A DNA stretch of 64,000 nucleotides, taken from NCBI RefSeq assembly GCF_054482525.1, contig NZ_CM137006.1. The stretch is one strand, 5' to 3'. The notes under the pieces were generated by a model. The model was not told where the DNA came from. It worked only from the letters and a program-made list of their open reading frames with translations, and made no database searches. This document shows, one piece after another, positions 3,381 through 57,024 of this stretch. Position 1 is the stretch's first letter. Every line of letters begins with the position of its first letter. A program made the position numbers and the translations under genes.

Positions 3381-3536
3381 TACAAGTCTCAGAAATTTGT
3401 TGCTTCTACGGCAGGACTACCGGGAAGTGATGCGCATCACGATAAACCAATCGCAGCTGATTTCAAGTGCGAGGTGTGTCACACCTCGCCGGGTGGTTAG
3501 CATGATAACAAAAAAACAAGTTAATGCACTAGTTCT

Positions 3537-16228: not shown

Positions 16229-16370
16229 TGTTAATTCCTGATTCAGGTGTGATTTTCCCTACGCCTGATGGAGAATTAGCGCACAGAGACTCACGAAATA
16301 TTTTTATTAAATACGGTTGAATATATTTTTTAGTTCGGCGGGGAGGGTGTTCCCGCCGAAATATTATTGC

Positions 16371-21200: not shown

Positions 21201-21337
21201 CGTGTAATGGCTGCATGAAATAAACAATAAAATATAAATAACATTATCAGCCTGCCGACGGCTTGAAGAGAGTCACAGTATCTTGTGCAACATTATTGGA
21301 AAGCGTGAGGGGCGAGGTAGCGAAGCGGAAAAATGTT

Positions 21338-21407
21338 AAAAAAAAGCCCATCGTGGGAGATGGGCAAAGACTACACACAGCAATTCGTTGTTTCACTCAG
21401 GGGATTT
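21338..21407. repeat. Left attachment-site direct repeat (duplicate of the rprA 3' end and terminator, 70 bp)
   Basis: Identical to 32979-33048: aaaaaaaagcccatcgtgggagatgggcaaagactacacacagcaattcgttgtttcactcaggggattt. Confidence 0.9.
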
Positions 21408-21424
21408 AAGTCATTGATTGATTT

Positions 21425-22054
21425 ATGGGTATGCGGTTTTTCGGCATAAACCAAATTAAGCAAGGCTTGAAAATGGACACACAAATTGCACACATATCGC
21501 ACACAAATAAAAAGGGGTATGTATGGCGCAAGCGTTATGAAAAACGCACGATTGAAATCATCCTACGCACCCGTGATAAATCAATTGCCATAAAAAGAGC
21601 GGCATCAATAACAATTCGCTATATGGAATTAAAATCACTTGACGTTCCATTTAAAGCAATGCTGGAAATGTTAAAAAAGTTTCGTGATGGTCTGATTACG
21701 TCACATGACATTGAGCGCTTAAGGTCGATTGCGATAGCTTCACAGGAAGCTCCACACGCCGCTGTAACCGCTTCGCCTATACAAAGTGTTGGCTATGATG
21801 TCAAAACCGCTCAGAAAGCCGCACAGGGGCATTCCCTTGGCGATGCTCAAAAAGTGTACTTTGGCGCCAACACCGAATGGAAAGAAAAAACCATCAAGGC
21901 TTATTCTGGTTGTATCGACCGCTTTATTTTATGGTGCGCTAATAAAAATATTCATACCGTGGAAGAAATAACGAAAGAGCATGTGATTTCATTTAAATCC
22001 AGCATGGATGAAGAAAAATTAGCCTCCATGACTAAATTTCGCATAATAATATGA
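21425..22054 (+). pseudogene. Tyrosine-integrase-like N-terminal fragment (core-binding/SAM-like region only, catalytic domain missing)
   Basis: 209-aa ORF; the segment KTIKAYSGCIDRFILWCANKNIHTVEEITKEHVISF resembles an integrase core-binding domain; no R..HxxR..Y catalytic region follows; sits next to the att repeat. Confidence 0.4.
21477..21509. repeat. Three tandem ~11-bp repeats (acacacaaatt / gcacacatatc / gcacacaaata), candidate integrase arm-type sites, left end
   Basis: Direct tandem repeats ~70 bp inside the left att repeat; a matching triplet lies ~70 bp inside the right repeat. Confidence 0.5.
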
Positions 22055-22362
22055 TTCGGGTTAGCATAACCAATACTTTTATTAAAGCCTATGTATGCAC
22101 CAATTTCTTTATACTTTAACTTAGTGAAATCTGAAATAATACTCAGTGGCTGCAATACGTTATGTCCATTGTGCGCCCCTTCATTAGCGCAAAATCCTGT
22201 ATTTGCAAACTGACCTTTATCACGCCAGATGAATCTATCAACGCCGCCACATACAGGACATGGTGTATGTTCATTTGGTTTAATATCAATTCCAAAATCA
22301 TTCATATGCACCAATGGATTCTTTTTAATATAATTATTCAAATCAGTAAAGAAATTAGCCAT
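21952..22362 (-). pseudogene. DNA primase zinc-ribbon domain fragment (Toprim and downstream domains absent)
   Basis: Motif HTPCPVCGGVDRFIWRD typical of primase Zn-ribbons; ORF stops soon after; its 3' end overlaps the convergent integrase fragment. Confidence 0.45.
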
Positions 22363-22681
22363 TATATTTGCTCCCGTATCGCCTTGCTGGATGCTTTGCA
22401 AAGAAATCAACGATATCTTGTTTGCGATACCAGATATAACCGTCTAATTCATGATGAATTTCTTGCGGAAATTCTTTAGGGTTAAAGCGTTTGGCGGCAT
22501 AAAACATTGGTTTAGTAACACCAGATAAAGCAATTGCATCATTGCCACACACAAGCCCTGTAAGTTGCACTTTCTGCGATTGTTCTTTTATCTGTGCCGC
22601 GATTAGCCTTTTATTCTCATTAACGTATTTTTCAATCTGTAGCTTACGCATTTTTTCGCGCATGTAATTTATATCGGTCAT
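22355..22681 (-). CDS. AlpA/Xis-like small DNA-binding protein, 108 aa
   Basis: C-terminal region FYAAKRFNPKEFPQE...YIWYRKQDIVDFF resembles the AlpA-family FPK...W..R..DI..W pattern. Confidence 0.45.
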   Translation of the reverse strand: MTDINYMREKMRKLQIEKYVNENKRLIAAQIKEQSQKVQLTGLVCGNDAIALSGVTKPMFYAAKRFNPKEFPQEIHHELDGYIWYRKQDIVDFFAKHPARRYGSKYNG

Positions 22682-22697
22682 TTTAGTATCCTATATA

Positions 22698-24200
22698 TTA
22701 AGTCATTATCTGTGCTGGTGGGGTAATGATATGAATTATCCCTCGATTATTCATAATGAATCTACATCGTTCAAGCCCTGTAATTGCTCGCTTTATATTA
22801 TTTGGCTGCATTTTATACTCAGTTTTTAATGCCTTCGTTAAATCGGATTCATGTACACAGCCATCAGCACTAAATTCCATTAACTGTATTATCATTTCTA
22901 AAACTCGTTCTTGTGCTGGTGCATTTTTCTTTTTTAACTCGCTCATATATGAGTCGTAAGCGAGAGTATTATTACGCGCAGCATTTTGAGTAAAATTAAC
23001 TCCTGCTTCATATGATTCTGCATTTACAGCGTTTTGCATTAATTGCTTATTTTGCTGTTGCGTTGTTAGTGGTTGCCGCTGTTGCGTGTGCATTTGCGCA
23101 TAATCATTTATCGGTGATTGCTGCATGATAAATGGTTCATCATTAGCTTGTTTGCGTTCTATTTTTCCTGCTGCAATTACTGGAGTTGGCCTATCAATAA
23201 ATACCAACGTCTTAGTATTGGCGTTTACCTGATAACCTTTTGCATTTTCTTCGGGATAATCGCATAATTCATTATTAATATCATGTAATTCACAGACGGT
23301 AATTCCGTTATCCGCTGTGCATAAATCAAATTGCATCACTGGTAATTTTGCAGCGCTACGGTTTTTTTCGATAGTGAGTGATACGGATAACCCAAAATCA
23401 TTACCCTGCATTTGCTCTAGTTTAATGACTGTATCAGAGTCATTTTTAAGGGTAATGGCTCCTTTCATACCTTTAGCCGCATCTTTGCCGCCGTGGTGAA
23501 CCATCAAGACAAAAGAATTTGTTTCTACTGCAATTCTTTTCAAAATCGAAATCAGCTTACGCATTGCAATAGCATCATTTTCATCAGGATTTTCCATATC
23601 CAAAATGGTTTTTCCATCAATGCTTTTTTTTGTGTAGTATGCCAAAAATGAAGAAAGCGTATCAAAACAAATGATGCCGCCTTTGTTATTGGTGATTTTA
23701 TTTACATCATTTATTATTCGATTCTGTATTTCTTTATCAAATAAGTTTATTTGTGGTGACAAGATGTGCATTCTGTCATTTTTAACGCCACTATTAAACT
23801 TATTAGACCACGCTGTATTTCGATCTTTGATTTCAACGCCTGTTTCACCATCAAAATAAAAAGCATGGCATTCTTTAGCAACTCGCAAACCAGCCCACGG
23901 TTTACCCTGTGCAACTCTGTTTAAAAGAGATAATGCCGCAAATGATTTGCCTGTGTTGGATTCACCATAAAGGAAGCCGACCTGTTTTCGGTTAAATAGA
24001 TTTTCAATTACAGGGCGTAACCGCTTTTCTGATTGCAATTGAATTTCAGCTAATTCAATTGCACACAATTCATCATTTATACCATCATATTCAGACCACT
24101 CACCGTAGTTGGCGGGTGCGTAATAATCAATCGCGAGAGTGTAATAATAATCAGGAATAGCAGACCAATCAATAAACATTCCTGTGCACATATCATTCAC
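22698..24200 (-). CDS. RecA-like (RepA/AAA_25-type) replication ATPase, 500 aa
   Basis: Walker A GESNTGKS near residue 80; hydrophobic strand plus HHGGKD Walker-B-like region; Q/N-rich linker and C-terminal domain; flanked by AlpA-like genes and iterons. Confidence 0.55.
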   Translation of the reverse strand: MNDMCTGMFIDWSAIPDYYYTLAIDYYAPANYGEWSEYDGINDELCAIELAEIQLQSEKRLRPVIENLFNRKQVGFLYGESNTGKSFAALSLLNRVAQGKPWAGLRVAKECHAFYFDGETGVEIKDRNTAWSNKFNSGVKNDRMHILSPQINLFDKEIQNRIINDVNKITNNKGGIICFDTLSSFLAYYTKKSIDGKTILDMENPDENDAIAMRKLISILKRIAVETNSFVLMVHHGGKDAAKGMKGAITLKNDSDTVIKLEQMQGNDFGLSVSLTIEKNRSAAKLPVMQFDLCTADNGITVCELHDINNELCDYPEENAKGYQVNANTKTLVFIDRPTPVIAAGKIERKQANDEPFIMQQSPINDYAQMHTQQRQPLTTQQQNKQLMQNAVNAESYEAGVNFTQNAARNNTLAYDSYMSELKKKNAPAQERVLEMIIQLMEFSADGCVHESDLTKALKTEYKMQPNNIKRAITGLERCRFIMNNRGIIHIITPPAQIMT

Positions 24201-24247
24201 CGTAATTTGGGTATTTAATTAAGAAAAATTCAATTACTTCTTCTTTT

Positions 24248-24400
24248 TTATATAGATGCTTTGTTTTTTTTGTTTTTATCGCAAGTAACTAAATGCTCTT
24301 TTGGAAATTCTTTAGGGTTAAAACGTTTAGCCATATAAAAAGCGGTTGAGCCAATTTTAGCCAAAAGTTGTGCTTCACGAGGTGTAATTAAGTCGCTCAT
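24248..24400 (-). pseudogene. Second AlpA-like fragment (50 codons), partial duplicate of the 22355-22681 gene
   Basis: Translation MSDLITPREAQLLAKIGSTAFYMAKRFNPKEFPKEH... shares the FY-AKRFNPKEFP motif with the downstream AlpA-like gene; weak RBS; not in the ORF track (<60 aa). Confidence 0.3.
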
Positions 24401-24750
24401 GTAGGGTATCTCTTAGATGTATTCTGAGTGCGGTCATGGTAGGCGAGGGGAGGAATAGCGGCAAGCATTACCGGATATAGTAAGCACTACCAGCTAAAGT
24501 CTAACTAACTGTCAACAGATTGAGGCTAAAACCACTGTATGTAAATTCAATTTTAAAAATTAAAAATCATTCTGGCTTAACTAATTATGCTCAATTTAAA
24601 TTGAATCTGATAATAAAAAGAATCAATAAAATGGATTTAGTGATTTTTAGTTGGACGAAATCGTTCATTTTATGTGCATTGCTCGCTGGTGATAATTCAA
24701 CCAATCCATTCAACCTATTCGAATGGGTGGTGAATTTTTGACCGAATTAA

Positions 24751-24920
24751 ATTCACCTGAATATTCACCGAATGATTCACCTGAATCATTCAGCCCTTCA
24801 TTCACCACGAAACCCAGGCGCGGCGGGGCTTACAGGCCGATTCATTCACCTGAATATTCACCTGAATATTCACCTGAATTATTCAACCAAAAATTCACCT
24901 TCATATTCACTCATTCACCT
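24751..24920. repeat. Iteron array: two clusters of three 12-bp tandem repeats (ATTCACCTGAAT) plus degenerate copies
   Basis: Units at 24751, 24763, 24775 and at 24844, 24856, 24868 with further TTCACC copies; lies upstream of the Rep ATPase operon. Confidence 0.6.
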
Positions 24921-24957
24921 CTCTATAAATAAGCATTGGAATGCTTTTTATAGAGGT
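24921..24957. other. Long near-perfect inverted repeat (ctctataaataagcatt gg aatgctttttatagag), hairpin or operator
   Basis: About 16-bp arms with a 2-nt loop, T-run on one side; lies between the iterons and the ner-like gene. Confidence 0.4.
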
Positions 24958-25236
24958 TGATGAATGAAGGTCGTTCAAGTGAATGAACTGTGAGTTGGGT
25001 AAACCCCTAGGGGTTGGGGGTGTTGTCGATTTGTGGTAAATTCCTTCTGCCAGCGTGAAAAAGGCGCTGGTGGGGATTTGCAGCCCCAAACAAACAAAAC
25101 CATTGGCAAGGAATTGCCGATGCGCGTGCGCACGTCAGTTATGGCGGTCACGGCGAGGGAGTCGAAAGGCTCGCCAGTTTTGTTTGTTTGCTGGTACTGC
25201 AAACCTCGTCGTGATCGTCACCACGGGGATGCATGT

Positions 25237-25488
25237 ATGCAGGAAACAGACTGGCACAAAGCGGATATTCTTGCCTCTTTAAAGAAAAAGAAAATCAGCA
25301 TGGCGGGATTATCCCGTGAACATGGTTTATCAAGTAGCACGTTGCTAAATGCACTTAGTAGAGAATGGCCTAGAGGCGAATTAATTATTGCTAATGCAAT
25401 TGGTGTGTCACCTCAAGAAATATGGCCTTCTAGGTATTTTGAAAAAGATGGCTCTCCAAAAAATCGTGTGATTCGTAAACCTGTTTAA
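25237..25488 (+). CDS. Ner/Nlp (SfsB)-family HTH DNA-binding regulator, ~83 aa
   Basis: MQETDWHKADILASLKKKKISMAGLSREHGLSSSTLLNALSREWPRGELIIANAIGVSPQEIWPSRY closely resembles Ner/Nlp; I prefer the internal ATG at 25237 over the 151-aa ORF start. Confidence 0.6.
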   Translation: MQETDWHKADILASLKKKKISMAGLSREHGLSSSTLLNALSREWPRGELIIANAIGVSPQEIWPSRYFEKDGSPKNRVIRKPV

Positions 25489-25705
25489 ATAAGTCAATGC
25501 GTCTCTGATTAAAAGGGGCGCATTTTTGTTTTTACTGACTTGTTGCAATGTGGGATATGTTGCGCACGTGTGTGCGATAGTTGTTAATTGTTTTTTGTAC
25601 TAGTTAACAAATACGAATTTTCTGAGGGTGCTATTTTGGGTTTTAGCTGCGGCTTCGCCTTGCTGCCCTTCGGGCTGGTGGTGCAAGAAGAATGTTTGAA
25701 AACTT

Positions 25706-25751
25706 CCTTTTCTTTGCTTCACCAGCCCCGTAGGGGCGTGAGCGTAGCGAA
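25706..25751. repeat. 46-bp direct repeat, copy 1 (ccttttctttgcttcaccagccccgtaggggcgtgagcgtagcgaa)
   Basis: Identical to 29912-29957; contains a gcccc-gta-ggggc hairpin; ~100 bp upstream of the 383-aa gene. Confidence 0.85.
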
Positions 25752-25849
25752 CCTAATCACTTTGATTTTGACACATATCGGTTCTATCATTTTCAGGAAA
25801 ATCATCATAGAATTATATAAAACATACGATTTTTAAGGTGAATTTTTAA

Positions 25850-27001
25850 ATGCACGAGAAAGCGCAAACAAAAATAAAAGATACTATTAGAGAAATACTA
25901 ATCACTCCAGCAATCGCTTTTACTGGTCGTGCAGGTCATTTTGATTTTTCATTATATGAAGTTTTAGCAAATGAGCTTAACAAAAGAAAGATAAAGTTTA
26001 AAATTGATAAATTATCATGTTGGATTATTTTTGATGGCGCAAAAAAACATTACTTTCAAGATAAATCAATTACTGACGCACAAGCGATAAATGATTTTGT
26101 GGATACGTTATGTAGTATTTACTGTGAAACACCTATGGATTACTCCATCGATTTTCACTTTAGAAATTTAAAAATCGATATCAACCCGATTGATTATGAG
26201 TTTGTTTCAATTAGAGCGGGTGAGGATATTGGTATTGGTTTGTTCGCTGAAAAAGAAAAGTATGCGATTGCGAGCATTAAAAAGAATGGCTATCTTTCAG
26301 GTGGTTATCCTAGCTCATTTATAAAATCGATTTTGCAAGATTTGAAAATCTTCATTTTTTTGATTAAAAGCATTAATTTGATTAAGACAGGAAAAACCAA
26401 TTTAGCATCCACGTTATTTCAATCGATGTCCGGTCATGCTGACACAATTAAGATTGATTGCGTTAATGTTAAATATCCTTGGATGAATAGCAGTGTCCAT
26501 ATTTCAGAGTCGGTAGGGAAATTTTTACACAACTTTATCTTCAATTATGAATTTGAAGAAGGCTACATTATAGAAAAAATAGATCATTCGCTTCAGCTAA
26601 TGAATGCAATAGTAAAAGATGAGTCAAAAGAAGCCTTGCGTATCAAGGCTGCAATTGATTGGTTGGTGCAATCTGAAATCACTGATGATGAAACCATGTC
26701 TTTTATTCAAATTTGCATGGGGCTTGAATCAATTTTTGGTGATGATGATTATGAGGGTGGCCTAACAAACATACTATCTGATAGATGCGCCTACTTAATA
26801 GGGAATAAAATTAAAGAGAGGAGATTTATAAAGGACACATTTAAAAAAATATATCAAGTTAGGTCAAAGATAGTGCATGGCGTAAGAAATCATTTATCAG
26901 ATGATGAATTATATTTTAGGCATTTAGCATATTCATATTTAGAGCGTTCTATTCTAAAAGAAATTCAAAATTTAGACCTGCAATCCCATCAGGCGACGTG
27001 A
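25850..27001 (+). CDS. Hypothetical protein with C-terminal HEPN-like R-x4-H-G motif, 383 aa
   Basis: AGGTGA RBS 8 nt upstream; C-terminal ...KKIYQVRSKIVHGVRNH matches the R-x4-6-H signature of HEPN RNases; strongly AT-rich. Confidence 0.4.
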   Translation: MHEKAQTKIKDTIREILITPAIAFTGRAGHFDFSLYEVLANELNKRKIKFKIDKLSCWIIFDGAKKHYFQDKSITDAQAINDFVDTLCSIYCETPMDYSIDFHFRNLKIDINPIDYEFVSIRAGEDIGIGLFAEKEKYAIASIKKNGYLSGGYPSSFIKSILQDLKIFIFLIKSINLIKTGKTNLASTLFQSMSGHADTIKIDCVNVKYPWMNSSVHISESVGKFLHNFIFNYEFEEGYIIEKIDHSLQLMNAIVKDESKEALRIKAAIDWLVQSEITDDETMSFIQICMGLESIFGDDDYEGGLTNILSDRCAYLIGNKIKERRFIKDTFKKIYQVRSKIVHGVRNHLSDDELYFRHLAYSYLERSILKEIQNLDLQSHQAT

Positions 27002-27236
27002 AGCTTGTGCGCTTCATTATGGGGCTAGCCGCCATCAGGCAAGGCGATTGCATGTCTTTGCGCTTCGTCGCCTCCTGATGCGTTCTGTGAAGATGTCGAT
27101 CATTTAGTGAGCGCGGCGGATGTTGCTGATGGATAGTGTGGATGCAACTGAACCATACCGCGAAAAGTGGCAGGATTGCGCCGGAATCGTACCGCTAGCA
27201 GGTGTTGAGTGTAAGAAGTAGTGATTGGGTGAAATG

Positions 27237-27275
27237 AAGATAGAAGGCCGCATAGAGGCATACAACTAGCCTTAT
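27237..27275 (-). terminator. Hairpin downstream of the lipoprotein gene (candidate terminator)
   Basis: ccgcata...tatgcgg stem followed, on the minus strand, by a T-rich tract. Confidence 0.35.
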
Positions 27276-27288
27276 GCGGTTGGCTGGT

Positions 27289-27732
27289 TCAGCACTGGTA
27301 AAAGTTGGCGAGGTGTGGAATATGGCTGGTGGTGGTTTCGAAAGCCTTGAGGCGTCCATTTTTATCTTTTTTCAAGTAGAGCATTTTTAGTGCTGGTGGA
27401 AATACTGAATCCATAATTCCATAAACTCCCACATTTTCGTTTTCTTCTTTAAGCATTCCCCAATATTGATAACCATTTAATGCGCTATCATCAATGCCCG
27501 TTCCAACGCGCTTAATGTGGGCAAGATATCGGCCTTTTATCGTAAAGCTAAATGATTCATCACGTTCATTTGTGCAAGTGTAAAATCCATCATCGCTTTC
27601 ATTTATAACTTCAGATGCTTCACGATTTAATGAGTACTTGTCTAAGTTGTTTATGATGTCACTTCGCTGTGCGCATCCAGTCAAATTTAGAATGGTAAAA
27701 ATTAGTACAGAAGATGCAAGATATTTGTTCAT
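27289..27732 (-). CDS. Predicted lipoprotein, ~147 aa
   Basis: N-terminus MNKYLASSVLIFTILNLTGC carries a signal peptide with lipobox LTGC; internal ATG at 27732 preferred. Confidence 0.55.
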   Translation of the reverse strand: MNKYLASSVLIFTILNLTGCAQRSDIINNLDKYSLNREASEVINESDDGFYTCTNERDESFSFTIKGRYLAHIKRVGTGIDDSALNGYQYWGMLKEENENVGVYGIMDSVFPPALKMLYLKKDKNGRLKAFETTTSHIPHLANFYQC

Positions 27733-27818
27733 TTTGATTATCCATATGAAAAGCAAGGTACTTAGATTAAATTACCCTGCTTAAGCAGTAATTAGCGGTT
27801 CCGTTAATAGAGGGTAGA

Positions 27819-28178
27819 TTATTTGTTAATTTGTTTTTTAGTGTGTGAGATAAAATTTCTAAGTAAATCTTTTTCAATTACAATTTCACATTTTAGGTTT
27901 TGGCTATCGACCGCATCAATTCTATCAAACCAAAACATTAATTCCTGGCTTGCATCGCATTTACGTTTGAATTTAATTGCCCTGCCGAATTTTTCACTTA
28001 AAGAATCATCATCACATAAAAAATAAATTTTATTATTAATGGTGATTTGAATTAAATATGTCTTCCTCGTTAGGTAATCTAACCTTTCGTTAGCTTTCAG
28101 TAAGTTAGCTTCAGCTTGTTTGATGCGTATAAGAGCATCCTCTTTGCTTAAAGGGGATGTATTGACAGACTTGATCAT
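27819..28178 (-). CDS. Hypothetical protein, 119 aa, upstream partner of the lipoprotein
   Basis: AAGGA RBS 8 nt upstream of the ATG; co-oriented with the lipoprotein gene, 86-bp gap. Confidence 0.5.
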   Translation of the reverse strand: MIKSVNTSPLSKEDALIRIKQAEANLLKANERLDYLTRKTYLIQITINNKIYFLCDDDSLSEKFGRAIKFKRKCDASQELMFWFDRIDAVDSQNLKCEIVIEKDLLRNFISHTKKQINK

Positions 28179-28287
28179 AATTTAATCCTTTGGTTAAGAT
28201 TCATCAAAAATATGCCATAAATAGCCTTGAAGGTTGTGTGGAATACATATTATGATAGCTTCATCTAATCAGCAAGGGGAATAATAG

Positions 28288-28443
28288 ATGCCTTCTAAAC
28301 GTGTTATATGCTCACTTGATGAGCAAGAGTTAGATATTCTCGAAAAATATAAATTACATTATAAAAATATGCATGGCGTAAAATTAAACAGAACGGCAAT
28401 TATCAAAATGTTGATTAGTCGTCTATCAAAAGAAATTCAATAA
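28288..28443 (+). CDS. Ribbon-helix-helix (Arc/CopG-like) small DNA-binding protein, 51 aa
   Basis: MPSKRVICSLDEQELDILEKYKLHYKNMHGVKLNRTAIIKMLISRLSKEIQ shows a beta-strand/helix/helix pattern; GGGGA RBS; divergent from the 27819-28178 operon; below ORF-track length cutoff. Confidence 0.45.
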   Translation: MPSKRVICSLDEQELDILEKYKLHYKNMHGVKLNRTAIIKMLISRLSKEIQ

Positions 28444-28495
28444 TAATTCTAATTACCAATTAATTTAAACTTCACATAATTAAAGAGGCAACTCT

Positions 28496-28810
28496 ATGCA
28501 CACTCTTTTTTCTAAATTTAAAAACAGGAAAATTAAAATGTATCAACCACGTTATAAAAGCAGAATGATTGACGATAATGAATATAATCAGGTGCTTCAA
28601 TCGAGAATGCAAAATCTTTTAAATCAATATAATAATGAGGTTTCAAACTTAACCCGCATTGGTGTTACAAATTTGGGTTTCGGCCGATGGGATAATGGAG
28701 AGAGCAAAATCAATAACCACGTTAATAAAGTAAGTGAGACTTTGGAAAAGATGCAATCTACGCAAGCCTTGATTGATGCTCTTGCAAATGAAATTACACA
28801 AACTAATTAA
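28496..28810 (+). CDS. Hypothetical protein, 104 aa
   Basis: AAGAGG RBS 8 nt upstream; no recognisable motif. Confidence 0.45.
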   Translation: MHTLFSKFKNRKIKMYQPRYKSRMIDDNEYNQVLQSRMQNLLNQYNNEVSNLTRIGVTNLGFGRWDNGESKINNHVNKVSETLEKMQSTQALIDALANEITQTN

Positions 28811-28894
28811 TCGAATGGGGGATGCTTTAAATGGTAATCGCAATCATGGTTGTAATGTTTTGGGCTTTCCTGATTCTTAAAGAGGAAATGAAAT

Positions 28895-29179
28895 ATGGTT
28901 AAATTTGGAGTGTTTTACCATCATGCATGGGGTGATGGTAAAAAGGAAATCCCGCCACCTGATTTAAATTACATCCGAACCGATCCACATAAAAATAATG
29001 AAATTGCTTTAGATGTTTTTGATTCAAGAATGGACGCACAAAAACGCGCTGATTTACTAAATTCACGCATGGCAAAAAATCAAACTGGTCAGCATTATGT
29101 TGCGCCAACAACGCAAGAAACCAAAACGGCTCAAAAGCGCTTTAAGTTTCCTTGTACTAGCATTTATGGGTGGAAATGA
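28895..29179 (+). CDS. Hypothetical protein, 94 aa (paralog family A)
   Basis: AGAGGA RBS; N-terminus MVKFGVFYHHAWGDG is similar to the next gene's N-terminus. Confidence 0.45.
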   Translation: MVKFGVFYHHAWGDGKKEIPPPDLNYIRTDPHKNNEIALDVFDSRMDAQKRADLLNSRMAKNQTGQHYVAPTTQETKTAQKRFKFPCTSIYGWK

Positions 29180-29181
29180 AA

Positions 29182-29556
29182 ATGAGTAAACAATTCGGTG
29201 TTTTCTTTTGGCGAAAAGGTGACGCTATTACCGATATCCCGTCAGATAAAAATGTTGCAAATCGCGGAGTAAAGCCTAAGCGCATTTTTTCAGATTATAT
29301 TGATGGAATGCGATATAAAGATAAAATGAATGCAACAATTCCAGCGGCGCAAAAAGGTAAATATGAATATGTATTAGCGGAAATTGTTGAACCAGACCCG
29401 AACAATACAAAGGTGTTGTTTAAATCTGGAAATTTAACAGAAGCATTAAGGGCGAAGCGACAAACAACCGAACAAATCAACCGAAATAAAATTGATGCAA
29501 TGATTAAAGAAGCCGCACACGATTACCTTTACACTATTACAGGAATGGAAAAATGA
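29182..29556 (+). CDS. Hypothetical protein, ~124 aa (paralog family A)
   Basis: N-terminus MSKQFGVFFWRKGDA parallels the upstream gene; GGTGGA RBS; start at 29182 preferred over 29170. Confidence 0.45.
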   Translation: MSKQFGVFFWRKGDAITDIPSDKNVANRGVKPKRIFSDYIDGMRYKDKMNATIPAAQKGKYEYVLAEIVEPDPNNTKVLFKSGNLTEALRAKRQTTEQINRNKIDAMIKEAAHDYLYTITGMEK

Positions 29557-29852
29557 TTATTGACGAGCGATTTATTAAATGGTCAATGGTGCTGGTGGAG
29601 GCCGGAAAGCCATCACCCAGCCTCGCGGGGCTTTATAAAGGAAACACTAAAGGATTAATCTTTTATAAAACACGTGAATTGGCATCAAATGCAGCCACTA
29701 AACGGAATGAGCAATTAGCAGGAACTAAATCAACCAGCCGATTTAAAATCATTAAATTGCATGACGCAGAAGCACAACAGAAACATGATTTTCAGTTAAA
29801 ACAGGAACGCCAGCGCCGCGATGCACGCCATATGCGCCGATTTGGTTTCTAA
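29553..29852 (+). CDS. Hypothetical basic protein, 99 aa
   Basis: 4-bp ATGA overlap with the upstream gene suggests translational coupling; Lys/Arg-rich C-terminus. Confidence 0.4.
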   Translation: MIIDERFIKWSMVLVEAGKPSPSLAGLYKGNTKGLIFYKTRELASNAATKRNEQLAGTKSTSRFKIIKLHDAEAQQKHDFQLKQERQRRDARHMRRFGF

Positions 29853-29911
29853 ATATAACTCAATAACTCAACCAATGGTGATGTTAAAGAATAAGGTGGC
29901 CTTAAATTTCA

Positions 29912-29957
29912 CCTTTTCTTTGCTTCACCAGCCCCGTAGGGGCGTGAGCGTAGCGAA
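29912..29957. repeat. 46-bp direct repeat, copy 2
   Basis: Identical to 25706-25751; 37 bp upstream of the tape-measure-like gene. Confidence 0.85.
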
Positions 29958-29993
29958 ATAAGTAACATTAATATCAAATCAGAGGTAAATAAA

Positions 29994-31982
29994 ATGGCAG
30001 GTGAAAATGCTCAATTGGGCTTTTCCGTCGATACATCGGAAGTGGAAACAGCATCAAAAAGGCTTAATGAATTAGCTAAATCAGCGCAAGGGGCGGCTGA
30101 TTCGGCTGGCAAATTATCAGATTCATTTGAGGAAAGTATGAAGGGTGTTAATTCATCAATTACTTCCAATCATCAGGCTATGCGCGAATTAACGGTAATG
30201 ATGCACGAAGCAATGTCTGGTAATTGGTCGCGCTTGCGTGGTTCTGCAATGATTATGGGCGGCGCATTGGGATTTGGTGGATTAACTAGCGGTGCGGTAG
30301 TTGGTGGAATTACGCTTGTTTCGGAAGGCATTGAATCGCTAATTGAAGGAATGCGAGAAGCTCAAAAAGCAGAAACTGAATTAAATAATTCTGCTGTAAT
30401 TACAGCAGATGTAAGCCTTTTAAATAGTGATTATGTTGATTCACTTACTATTGGTTATGAGAAATTAGGCTATTCAGCAACACAAGCAAAAGGCATGATT
30501 GCAGCGTTAAGTAATGCGGGTATGTTTGGTGATGAATTTAGTGTTGCAGGTAAACAAATTGCCGCACTATCTAAAGCGTTAGGCGGTAATTCAGACGAAC
30601 AAAAAAAATTAGCTGGTCAATTTGGTGGCTTGTATTCTGACCCGCTAGGACACGTTAACGAATTTTTCCAAGTAACAAACGGATGGATTACCAAAACCGA
30701 ACAAAACCGAATTAATGCGGCTGAACAATCGCATAATTCAGCACAAGCTGAAATGGCTATGCAAGAAGCGCTATTAGATGTTTATAAGCGTCAAACCGAT
30801 ATGCTACAGCTTAAAGCCTATTTGGAAACTAACGCCGCTACATATTCAGCCTTTCAGACGCGCGAACAATTCGGCAGCGCATGGGGTAAGGGCGAAAAAG
30901 AAAAGGCAGACGCATTTATCAAGCAATATGACGAGCGCCAGCAATCATTTAATCAGGGCGTTGAAAAGCTAAAAGGAAGCATTCACGAAACAGGACGCCA
31001 GATAAGGGAAAATGTAGAAGAATTTAATAAAGGAATGCATCCCCATAAAGTGCATACACACCACGGATTAACAGCAATTGAGAAAGCAGCTAAACAATTG
31101 GTGACCTACCAAACCCAAATTAAACAGGCTGGTTTGCAATTTGACCAGCAAATTAATTCAATTGGTGATTCAGTAAATAATGCGTGGAGTAATAAATTAT
31201 ACTCTTATTCAATGTCTTCTGACCAGAATGATTTTGCAAACCGAATTGAACAAATCAATGAACAATTCGACCGTATGCGCGAAAATGTAGACCGTTTGGC
31301 GCTGCAACATCATAAATCAATTGGTTCAAAAGAATATGTTGAAATGTTCCAAAAAATCGAATTAGGGCGCAAAAACGTATTGGCTGAAAACGTTGCTGGA
31401 TTTAATGAAATGGAGTCATTGCAGCATTCAGCGCTGGCGGGAATGGATGAGGGATGGATTAAATACCAGAAGCAGGTTAATGATGTTGCAAGCCAATCAG
31501 AGAAAGTTTTTGATACGGCTGTTGAGGGAATGACAAATTCATTAACTGATTTCTTTACAACTGGTGAGGCTGGTTGGACTAATTTTGTAAAATCAATCGC
31601 AACAATCACTGAAAAATACATGGTTCAAGATTGGATTGTTGAGCCGCTAGCAGGATTAGTAAAAGGGGGGATTAGCTCGCTATTTTCATCAAATCCATTG
31701 AGTTCAACGGCTAACACTTTTGCCGTTCCCGATATTCCAAAATTGGGCGCAACTCATTTAGGAGGCGGTCTAGGTTCGACCGCACCAGTTATCAATATCA
31801 CCATTAATGACAATGGCAACAAAGGCGGCGTTGATAGCAATGTTAGCGGCACAACAGGGCAAGTACAAAAAATGGGGGCGGCGCTAGATAAATTCCTGCA
31901 AAACTATATCAAAGAGCAAAACGTAAAATCCAACCGTCAGGGCGGGTTAAACAAAACAATGGGGAACTGGTCGACAAGATAA
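29994..31982 (+). CDS. Phage tail tape-measure protein homolog (lambda gpH-like), 662 aa, orphan
   Basis: Glycine-rich hydrophobic segment MIMGGALGFGGLTSGAVVGGITLV near the N-terminus, long helical middle, C-terminal FDTAVEGMTNSLTDFFTTGEAGWTNFVKSI and ...VINITINDNG matching, from memory, the lambda H C-terminal region; AGAGGT RBS. Confidence 0.6.
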   Translation: MAGENAQLGFSVDTSEVETASKRLNELAKSAQGAADSAGKLSDSFEESMKGVNSSITSNHQAMRELTVMMHEAMSGNWSRLRGSAMIMGGALGFGGLTSGAVVGGITLVSEGIESLIEGMREAQKAETELNNSAVITADVSLLNSDYVDSLTIGYEKLGYSATQAKGMIAALSNAGMFGDEFSVAGKQIAALSKALGGNSDEQKKLAGQFGGLYSDPLGHVNEFFQVTNGWITKTEQNRINAAEQSHNSAQAEMAMQEALLDVYKRQTDMLQLKAYLETNAATYSAFQTREQFGSAWGKGEKEKADAFIKQYDERQQSFNQGVEKLKGSIHETGRQIRENVEEFNKGMHPHKVHTHHGLTAIEKAAKQLVTYQTQIKQAGLQFDQQINSIGDSVNNAWSNKLYSYSMSSDQNDFANRIEQINEQFDRMRENVDRLALQHHKSIGSKEYVEMFQKIELGRKNVLAENVAGFNEMESLQHSALAGMDEGWIKYQKQVNDVASQSEKVFDTAVEGMTNSLTDFFTTGEAGWTNFVKSIATITEKYMVQDWIVEPLAGLVKGGISSLFSSNPLSSTANTFAVPDIPKLGATHLGGGLGSTAPVINITINDNGNKGGVDSNVSGTTGQVQKMGAALDKFLQNYIKEQNVKSNRQGGLNKTMGNWSTR

Positions 31983-32043
31983 TATTATGTTGCTTAGTAA
32001 GTCTAAACTTTACGCCCTAATTAGGGCGTTTTATTTAAAAAAG

Positions 32044-32661
32044 TTAATTTGCTGTATTTTCTCTCATCTTTCTAAGTTCTGGCAATACTTTCTTATAGAA
32101 TTTCGTAGTGGAATCAGCGCAGTAGTTTTGCAGATACTTATAGTTTTCTTCAAATTTAGGGAGATCTTTAGCTACCGTCAATTGCTTTGGTAAAGTTCCG
32201 GTAGCATCATCGGTTATATCAAATGTTATTGAATTATGTTTTCGATCTTCATTAACTTTTTTTAAAGTGGCAACAATAGGGCTTTTATCCATAGAACCAT
32301 CTATTAGTTGGCGAACTTGAAACTTCCTTGGGATTATAAAATTAATTACTGACGGAGGTTCACTATTTAATGTTATATTCCAAGTTATTGGCATAGCATC
32401 ACATAAACCTTCAGATATTATTTCACCATCAATTGAACCATCAGAATTGGCGATAAATTGTATTATAACAAGTGGTTGATCTTTATTTAAGCCAAGATCT
32501 CCACTATTTATTATATATTCAGCGTCTGTCGACCATTTGCCTGTTAGAAATTCTTTTTGATAAAGTGCTTCATTTATTTCACCTCTATATGGTAAATATA
32601 GACCTATAGCACCAATTGCAACACCTAATACAGTGCATATTGTTGTTATTCGTCCACTCAT
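32044..32661 (-). CDS. Membrane-anchored hypothetical protein, 205 aa
   Basis: N-terminal hydrophobic helix ITTICTVLGVAIGAIGLYLPY; AT-rich; at the island edge. Confidence 0.45.
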   Translation of the reverse strand: MSGRITTICTVLGVAIGAIGLYLPYRGEINEALYQKEFLTGKWSTDAEYIINSGDLGLNKDQPLVIIQFIANSDGSIDGEIISEGLCDAMPITWNITLNSEPPSVINFIIPRKFQVRQLIDGSMDKSPIVATLKKVNEDRKHNSITFDITDDATGTLPKQLTVAKDLPKFEENYKYLQNYCADSTTKFYKKVLPELRKMRENTAN

Positions 32662-32875
32662 ATCACACTCGTTATCTTATCCTTGTTGTAGTTAAGCATT
32701 TTATTTTATTTTTTTATTGTGAAAATGGCTAGTTTTAGTTGGGTCTTGCGCTGAATCTAACGAGTGCTTACCCCGTGAAGTGATTTATGATTAAAGTTCG
32801 TTTTGTTTTTGGTTAAAAAATGAACATGTGAGTGCTTTGGAAAATTTCTGTAACACTCACCTGATTTACGCTGGT

Positions 32876-32909
32876 AGCACACAAATGGTACACAAACGGC
32901 ACACAGGTA
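32876..32909. repeat. Three tandem ~11-bp repeats (agcacacaaatgg / tacacaaacgg / cacacaggtaa), candidate integrase arm-type sites, right end
   Basis: Mirrors the left-end triplet; same orientation; ~70 bp inside the right att repeat. Confidence 0.5.
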
Positions 32910-32978
32910 ATCGCATACCTTTAATGACCTAATTTCTTCAAGCCCCTGCATTGCTGCGTTTGTCGTGATTTTCGGCAT

Positions 32979-33048
32979 AAAAAAAAGCCCATCGTGGGAG
33001 ATGGGCAAAGACTACACACAGCAATTCGTTGTTTCACTCAGGGGATTT
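32979..33048. repeat. Right attachment-site direct repeat (3' 70 nt of intact rprA)
   Basis: Identical to 21338-21407. Confidence 0.9.
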
Positions 33049-33084
33049 CCATGCTTATAAATCAATATGTTGATTTATAACCGT
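32979..33084 (-). ncRNA. rprA: Small regulatory RNA RprA (activator of rpoS translation)
   Basis: Minus-strand sequence ACGGTTATAAATCAACATATTGATTTATAAGCATGGAAATCCCCTGAGTGAAACAACGAATTGCTGTGTGTAGTCTTTGCCCATCTCCCACGATGGGCTTTTTTTT matches RprA from memory, including the intrinsic terminator; lies between ydiK and ydiL. Confidence 0.85.
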
Positions 33085-38522: not shown

Positions 38523-38747
38523 TCCTGACTTAATGCCGCAATTTCGCCAAATCGACCTGGATTAACCTCCGTCCAGGTTCGATGACCTTCTTAATACTGC
38601 TTATCTACCCGCCTGATATTGTTCAAAAATAATACTAATCGCAGTTTGTGTTAAAACGGCGGGTTAGCTTTATGAGATTATTCTTATCGCCCCTTCAAGA
38701 GCTAAGCCACTGAGAGTGCCGGAGATAAGCGCCGGATGGGGTAGAAA

Positions 38748-38788
38748 CCCTTAAGCCTGTGTCGCACAGACTTAAGGGTTTTCTTATT
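38748..38788 (+). terminator. Rho-independent terminator-like hairpin in the ydiH-sufA intergenic region
   Basis: cccttaagcctgtg...cacagacttaaggg stem followed by ttttcttattt. Confidence 0.5.
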
Positions 38789-56452: not shown

Positions 56453-56758
56453 TCAGGCGAGTTTTGCCTCATTGATTTGACTCAGTGGCTCATTGACATC
56501 GAAAACTTTGGCGACAACTTCCTCAACGCCGAGATTTTTCAGTCGGGCAGTATGTTTTTCCAGATAGGCAAGGGCGCTTTTTTCATCAGTGAAAAGGTAG
56601 ATCCCACCGGCTTCGTGGTTCTTTTCACTTTCTGTCCATACCTTCCACAGAAAACCAGGTTCCTGATTAATCGACTCAGCAAGTGGTTTAAGCTGCTCAG
56701 CCATTGCGTCGCCAAATGGGCCATTAAAAGCAAAATGAAGTTGTAACAAAGTTGCCAT
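56453..56758 (-). CDS. ydhR: Putative monooxygenase-like protein YdhR, 101 aa
   Basis: 101-aa ORF; synteny. Confidence 0.85.
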
Positions 56759-56866
56759 AGCGATTCTCCTTCTGATAACGCATACGAAGACAGTGTAAAT
56801 CTTTTAACGTATTGGATACAGAGAAGAAACAGAGGGAAAAAAGGAGAAGACCAGATTAAGAAAATC

Positions 56867-56943
56867 TGGTGCGTCCGAGTGGACTCGAACCACCGACCCC
56901 CACCATGTCAAGGTGGTGCTCTAACCAACTGAGCTACGGACGC
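56867..56943 (-). tRNA. valV: tRNA-Val (GAC)
   Basis: Reverse complement reads GCGTCCGTAGCTCAGTTGGTTAGAGCACCACCTTGACATGGTGGGGGTCGGTGGTTCGAGTCCACTCGGACGCACCA, a cloverleaf with anticodon GAC and encoded CCA. Confidence 0.95.
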
Positions 56944-56947
56944 AGGA

Positions 56948-57024
56948 TGGTGCGTTCAATTGGACTCGAACCAACGACCCCCACCATGTCAAGGTGGTGC
57001 TCTAACCAACTGAGCTATGAACGC
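56948..57024 (-). tRNA. valW: tRNA-Val (GAC), second tandem copy
   Basis: Reverse complement reads GCGTTCATAGCTCAGTTGGTTAGAGCACCACCTTGACATGGTGGGGGTCGTTGGTTCGAGTCCAATTGAACGCACCA. Confidence 0.95.

Follow-up and report, generated by a model that had tools for sequence, protein, structure and literature searches.

The attP of phage lambda has accessory arm-type sites (P1, P2 and P′1–P′3) that lie in the arms of the element and are distinct from the core. In the KplE1 (CPS-53) element, whose integrase is IntS, the integrase gene is negatively autoregulated, with attL overlapping its promoter (PMC2951348). Here we describe a related arrangement at the two ends of an 11.6-kb island (positions 21408–32977) in a 64,000-nt stretch of contig NZ_CM137006.1 (assembly GCF_054482525.1), which we call the window. 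The island lies between two copies of a direct repeat that is the 3′ end of the small RNA (sRNA) gene rprA, and near each end it carries three tandem 11-bp units. These triplets are most likely arm-type sites (P and P′) that are bound by a heterobivalent tyrosine integrase (Int), the product of the island gene int.

Like the lambda arm sites, the triplets would be accessory sites in the arms of the element, separate from the core and ~85–155 bp from the crossover, and their tandem copies are about one helical turn apart, as in P′1–P′3. They differ from the lambda sites in that their consensus is YRCACA, both arms have three tandem units in the same orientation, and the predicted attP extends about equally far on both sides (−156 to +155); in addition, the target here is an sRNA terminator hairpin and the P′ sites are within the int open reading frame (ORF). 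As in KplE1, int adjoins attL and reads away from an RNA-gene remnant, and the P′ sites overlap the 5′ region of int. In contrast to KplE1, the sites here are downstream of the ATG (codons 2–12) rather than over the −10 box, and the target is rprA rather than a tRNA gene. The logic is that of lambda and KplE1, and the location of the P′ sites within the int ORF is the sole unusual twist. The feature looks functional and is ordinary in type; the rprA-targeting integrase to which it belongs is uncharacterised.

Two repeat triplets are confined to the island ends

The repeats at the two ends are as follows.

21337–21407, no strand assigned: left copy of the 71-nt att direct repeat, with a hairpin at 21346–21365
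21478–21510, + strand: left (P′-arm) triplet, CACACAAATTG CACACATATCG CACACAAATAA, int codons 2–12
32878–32910, + strand: right (P-arm) triplet, CACACAAATGG TACACAAACGG CACACAGGTAA, three 11-bp units with consensus YRCACA
32978–33048, no strand assigned: right copy of the 71-nt att direct repeat, the 3′ end of rprA

An earlier note on this DNA had described three tandem ~11-bp units at the right end, mirroring a left triplet in the same orientation and at the same spacing from the att repeat. The description holds, with a shift of 1–2 nt: the letters at 32876–32910 read agCACACAAATGG TACACAAACGG CACACAGGTAA, and the in-register units start at 32878, 32889 and 32900. Both triplets are on the + strand, and they lie inward of the 71-nt repeat by 70 nt (left) and 67 nt (right). 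A repeat search of the window pairs them as a 33-nt direct repeat with 79% identity, and the similarity of the two island ends is limited to the triplet units.

The pattern YACACA-N5-YACACA-N5-YACACA has two perfect matches in the 64 kb, which are the two triplets, where 0.02 matches are expected even with 2 mismatches. A looser pattern, YRCAC-N6-YRCAC-N6-YRCAC, is also found in the window only at the two triplets, against an expectation of 0.013 per window from 300 Markov simulations. Across 401,683 bp (the window and the fetched loci) this looser pattern is confined to island ends and is always on the int strand. It is absent from 10/10 empty Klebsiella aerogenes sites and from all flanking DNA; these control sites came from a K. 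aerogenes YdiK look-up aimed at prophage attR, which returned empty sites only. A chance origin of the triplets is excluded.

Crossover is most likely in the rprA terminator hairpin

The att repeats belong to the following rprA features.

32977–33084, − strand: intact rprA sRNA gene at attR (Rfam RF00034, 118.8 bits, model positions 1–108)
21336–21456, − strand: chimeric rprA at the attL junction (Rfam RprA, 81.4 bits over the full model)
32987–33006, − strand: rprA terminator hairpin GCCCATC-N6-GATGGGC, the putative core and crossover, with 7-bp inverted arms and a 6-bp spacer

The two 71-nt att copies are 100% identical in a repeat search. The distance of ~70 bp between triplet and core repeat that the earlier note gave is correct for the 71-nt repeat; that repeat, however, is the 3′ end of rprA, and the crossover is probably in the hairpin. 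We consider exchange most likely within the terminator stem-loop because prophages with a related integrase have only AAAAAAAAGCCCATCGTGGGAGATGGGCAAA in common with the rprA site, and because the att ends of the related islands of Enterobacter ludwigii and Salmonella differ there. The E. ludwigii attL parts from attR after GACTACAC. In the Salmonella island, attL (3445–3464 of locus L013) and attR (16232–16251) have 3 differences within the hairpin, GCCCATCGTAGGAGACGGGC versus GCCCACCGTGGGAGATGGGC; in this single case, exchange may have taken place where the loop starts on its left side. The hairpin resembles two core sites in inverted orientation that flank a 6-bp spacer, and the YRCACA units differ from this putative core.

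With the crossover in the hairpin, the triplets are at about −118 to −86 and +122 to +154 from its centre, instead of at ~70 bp. They are thus in element DNA on both sides of the crossover, and they are missing from empty sites. We predict an attP of ~310 bp, consisting of window 32840–32996 joined to 21356–21510 (about −156 to +155), and the rprA terminator hairpin is the likely attB. This pair makes the rprA-targeting integrase system directly testable, and it could be put to use for integration at a site where rprA stays whole. A literature search found no paper describing rprA as an attachment site.

At attL, the DNA that the element contributes next to the 71-nt repeat keeps some rprA-like sequence, and this junction carries a second rprA annotation in RefSeq. 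The element-borne rprA copy is diverged in E. ludwigii.

The P arm is conserved next to unalignable DNA

To the left of the right att repeat is a conserved block that contains the triplet. Its parts, and a possible counterpart of one of them at the other end, are:

32840–32977, + strand: whole conserved P arm, reading GAAAATT..TGTAACAC..GATTTACG, the triplet, CGCATACC and ATTGCTG, followed by the att repeat
32912–32919, + strand: CGCATACC, a possible weaker fourth unit, 12 bp past the third; CATACC is invariant in 8/8 right ends
21428–21435, − strand: inverted copy of CGCATACC, a weakly supported match of one 8-mer only

The right ends compared were those of the window, Escherichia coli FREC5 and S10, K. 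aerogenes (L015), E. ludwigii (L007), Salmonella (L013), a 12.85-kb metagenomic contig (L016) and a decayed E. coli island (L014). The set is small, its members are related to one another, and it includes no prophage right arm; the contigs of L005, L009 and L011 stop at or before the att repeat. Between lineages there is no similarity upstream of the P arm, and the right ends become alignable abruptly from GAAAATT (window 32840) through the triplet to the core. The blastn match between the window and FREC5 restarts at the same base, 32840.

The alignment of island ends from several genomes, which the earlier note had suggested as a check, places the right triplet at the ends of homologous islands, with loss only in the decayed one. 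The 11-bp phase and the YRCAC(A) core are kept in 7 islands including that of the window, in Enterobacter, Klebsiella and Salmonella as well as in E. coli. The K. aerogenes triplet is the same as the window's, those of FREC5 and S10 have one C-to-T change each (CACAT, TACAT), and in E. ludwigii the third unit is CGCACAGGCGA. The Salmonella triplet reads CGCACGAATGA TACACAAATAG CGCACAGGCGA and that of L016 reads CGCACGGATGG TACACAATCAG CGCACAGGCGA. The two arms partly co-vary, with CACAC replaced by CGCAC or TACAC in the Salmonella/L016 lineage. In L014 (E. coli GCA_023276905.1, 14100–14140), a ~40-bp deletion takes exactly the right triplet and leaves the flanking P-arm blocks. This island has decayed at the same site: its int is frameshifted into three ORFs, an insertion sequence (rve) has entered and most genes are gone.

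Conservation of this kind could also arise if the triplets were bound by another protein of the element, such as an excisionase or recombination directionality factor (Xis/RDF), a Ner-like repressor or a packaging protein. In lambda, the Xis/RDF sites of the P arm are likewise direct repeats in tandem, spaced by about one helical turn, so the spacing seen here describes them as well, and the conserved P arm holds more segments of unknown role (TGTAACAC, GATTTACG, ATTGCTG). Nevertheless, we consider this explanation unlikely. Xis/RDF sites would be expected in one arm only and alongside a cognate RDF gene; the motif is in both arms, with three copies in each, which disfavours this candidate. 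A search of the island's small ORFs against PHROGs, NCBIfam and Pfam gave no RDF-like protein, a missing profile match being weak evidence. Moreover, the motif accompanies int in prophages that have no further gene in common with the island. It is also unchanged in S10, which has another replication module, and in L015, which has none, although both have different genes next to the right end. The triplets are therefore better explained as sites of Int: they are conserved, and they travel with the integrase.

The inverted copy of CGCATACC in the left arm is at about +76 from the hairpin centre and mirrors the right-arm copy at about −81. On the − strand, Salmonella has CGCACACC at the corresponding place and E. 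ludwigii has CTGCACACC. A terminator-like hairpin called at 32898–32919 was not accepted as a terminator; it needs G–T pairs and overlaps unit 3 and CGCATACC.

The left triplet is embedded in the integrase gene

The 401-amino-acid tyrosine integrase of RefSeq relatives starts at the equivalent of window position 21473, and with this start the left triplet is int codons 2–12 (MDTQIAHISHTN). The location within the int coding sequence amends the earlier note, as does the truncation of the window's int.

21473–22054, + strand: truncated int, 193 amino acids, with the putative arm-binding domain and the SAM-like domain kept and the catalytic domain lost

The three left units occupy three different reading frames. 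An array is present at the int 5′ end in all 11 int genes examined and is degenerate in one of them (E. ludwigii). In SU10-portal-type prophages, whose Int is 53–56% identical and which use the same rprA terminator, the arrays read TACACAAGTAA TACACACATCA TACACTTCAAA and CACACAAATTG CACACCTTATG CACACAGAGAA. A Citrobacter freundii integrase (L027), 37% identical and at another chromosomal site, has TACAC, TGCAC and TGCAC at 11-bp spacing, in an array shifted by 15 nt against the protein alignment.

Codon usage within the left array is unusual. The His and Tyr codons end in C in 18/18 cases inside the array, as against 56/199 (28%) elsewhere in the same genes, and the Ala codon there is always GCA or GCG. 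The left array is therefore constrained at the DNA level and not at the protein level alone. The amino acids that the triplet encodes are conserved too, and both kinds of constraint may act on the array.

These observations bear on the idea that the repeats have no job as DNA, the left one being coding sequence or a CA-rich translation enhancer and the right one a copy of the int 5′ end that is decaying. The left triplet is indeed coding, with conserved amino acids, and CA-rich sequence downstream of start codons has been reported to enhance translation in E. coli. Set against this are the different frame of each unit, the 15-nt shift of the L027 array relative to the protein, the constraint on synonymous sites and the restriction of end-to-end similarity to the units. 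In addition, the right triplet is non-coding, and it keeps its phase and core across genera although its flanks are unalignable. We regard this idea as highly unlikely and retain arm-type sites as the explanation for both triplets.

Because the P′ sites are over the int 5′ region, we predict that int is negatively autoregulated. Scans of both island ends for sigma-70 promoters turned up no convincing candidate that would serve int and nothing in the P arm.

The integrase and a model for its att sites

In full-length Int, Pfam identifies a SAM-like domain (134–203) and a catalytic domain (234–385), and no Pfam family matched the N-terminal ~130 residues. An AlphaFold2 model of residues 1–99, from a 31-sequence alignment, has a pLDDT of 88.9 and a β3-α fold, with strands at 8–11, 15–22 and 25–30, a helix at 36–54 and a long helix at 60–91. 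As modelled, Int thus has an N-terminal domain besides the core-binding and catalytic ones, with a three-stranded sheet and helix followed by a long helix, as in lambda. Structural matches, with modest scores, include the Int arm-binding domain of the Yersinia high-pathogenicity island (HPI), lambda Int and AP2 domains. The modelled fold resembles that of the HPI (P4-like) domain (PDB 3jtz) at an identity of only 12%. In contrast to lambda Int, the N-terminal domain is without detectable sequence similarity to any PDB chain: a profile search against PDB chain sequences found nothing.

The Int family comprises 75 protein clusters, all from Enterobacteriaceae. A tblastn search of 50,697 phage records with Int gave no match, and scans of IMG/VR with the Int alignment and with an alignment of an island protein annotated as HEPN gave no relatives. 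Members of the family (53–56% identity; L006, L011) are found in SU10-portal/adaptor-type prophages at the rprA terminator in K. aerogenes and metagenomes. The 37% relative L027 is in a C. freundii prophage that contains tape-measure and Dit genes, at another site. That satellite and phage have an att module in common may hint at a helper relationship.

The attL/attR-like architecture proposed in the earlier note is supported by comparative footprinting, by the motif's restriction to island ends, by the loss in L014, by the codon constraint and by the modelled fold of the Int N-terminus. We propose the following mechanism. The attP of Int would recombine with the rprA terminator hairpin; integration would leave the P arm at attR and the P′ arm, together with its triplet, at attL, over the int start. 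The N-terminal domain, with its three-stranded sheet and helix, would bind each YRCACA unit, and the 11-bp spacing would set three protomers on one face of the helix. DNA bending would then let the catalytic domains reach the core sites GCCCATC and GATGGGC, and the intasome assembled in this way could serve integration and, from attL and attR, excision. Int bound to the P′ units within its own first 12 codons would damp int transcription, in a manner similar to KplE1-type autoregulation.

A bolder version of this model goes further, and we put it forward as a possibility that falls a little short of probable. The P′ sites within int codons 1–12, in three frames, would mean that the DNA encoding the N-terminal tail and first β-strand of the arm-binding domain is also the DNA that this domain binds. 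The gene would then carry its own transcriptional roadblock, and the N-terminus of the protein would evolve in step with the site that it binds. The integrase would then represent an undescribed family acting at the rprA terminator, common to a rare, tape-measure-encoding, satellite-like island and to podophage-type prophages.

In the window, the att architecture is intact. Compared with FREC5, the window's island has a deletion of 1,874 bp, for which blastn places the junction at 22036/22037, corresponding to 2237/4112 of the FREC5 locus. The deletion removes the Int catalytic domain (after codon 188), a GIY-YIG gene and most of a primase gene. The same deletion is present in three genomes with a ~100% identical island (H1–H3). 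RefSeq also annotates the same truncated int in SCU-102, and in SCU-102, 19KM1776 and PCN033 the blastn match to the FREC5 int stops after its first 564 nt. Because int is truncated, the island is probably immobilised in the window's lineage; without a catalytic domain, it cannot recombine by itself, and the att sites are unusable in cis and idle unless Int is supplied in trans.

The island and its other features

Among 5,426 complete E. coli genomes, four have the whole island and a fifth has a patchy relative; the rest match only the uninterrupted rprA region. The island looks like an undescribed phage-satellite-like element that is rare in E. coli, and no description of it turned up in a literature search. 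Neither its annotated genes nor the ORFs checked include a capsid, terminase or portal gene. A scan of contigs with the HEPN-like alignment gave only one distant locus (Edaphovirga, L012), which is without the motif. The features of the island are:

Genes: int; GIY-YIG (in relatives); a zinc-ribbon/toprim primase; an AAA_25 helicase-like ATPase; iterons; several small ORFs
Further genes: C4-type antisense RNA; a Ner-like HTH_35 repressor; a 383-amino-acid HEPN-annotated protein (in all islands)
A 662-amino-acid protein with a lambda tape-measure C-terminal domain
24750–24911, direct and inverted: origin-like cluster of at least 5 copies of the iteron ATTCACCTGAAT
25137–25225, + strand: C4 antisense RNA (Rfam RF01695, 65.8 bits)

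The iterons vary among islands, with TTCTGGAAAA in S10 and CACTGGTGGA in the Enterobacter, Salmonella and Citrobacter islands, which have other replication proteins. Upstream of the right triplet, the earlier note had pointed to an iteron-like CACCTGA; the sequence is there (32858–32864, a shift of 1 nt), but its likeness to an iteron does not hold, with CGCCTGA, TGTCTGA, CGTCTGA or GCGAGA in relatives. That the right-end block consists of iterons of the island's replication origin is scarcely credible: the context of CACCTGA, ACTCACCTGATT, matches ATTCACCTGAAT at 10/12 positions, but FREC5 has the same iterons and yet CGCCTGA in its P arm, the P-arm block stays similar in S10, Enterobacter, Salmonella and Citrobacter where the iterons differ, and the triplet units are unlike iterons. 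We rejected the match as a coincidence, since the sequence is not conserved and does not follow the islands' iterons.

The C4 RNA is directly upstream of the Ner-like helix-turn-helix gene (25237–25488). A 61-nt direct repeat with 89% identity (25706–25766 and 29912–29972) holds a GC-rich hairpin, CAGCCCCGTAGGGGCGTG; one copy immediately precedes the HEPN-like gene and the second lies upstream of the tape-measure-like gene. FREC5 also matches this repeat, with one match downstream of its int. The repeat may be a shared regulatory or terminator element.

Elsewhere in the window, Rfam and ARAGORN identify the sRNA rydB (38689–38749) and an HPnc0260-family antisense RNA over two tandem tRNA-Val(GAC) genes (56742–57024); these are ordinary chromosomal features.
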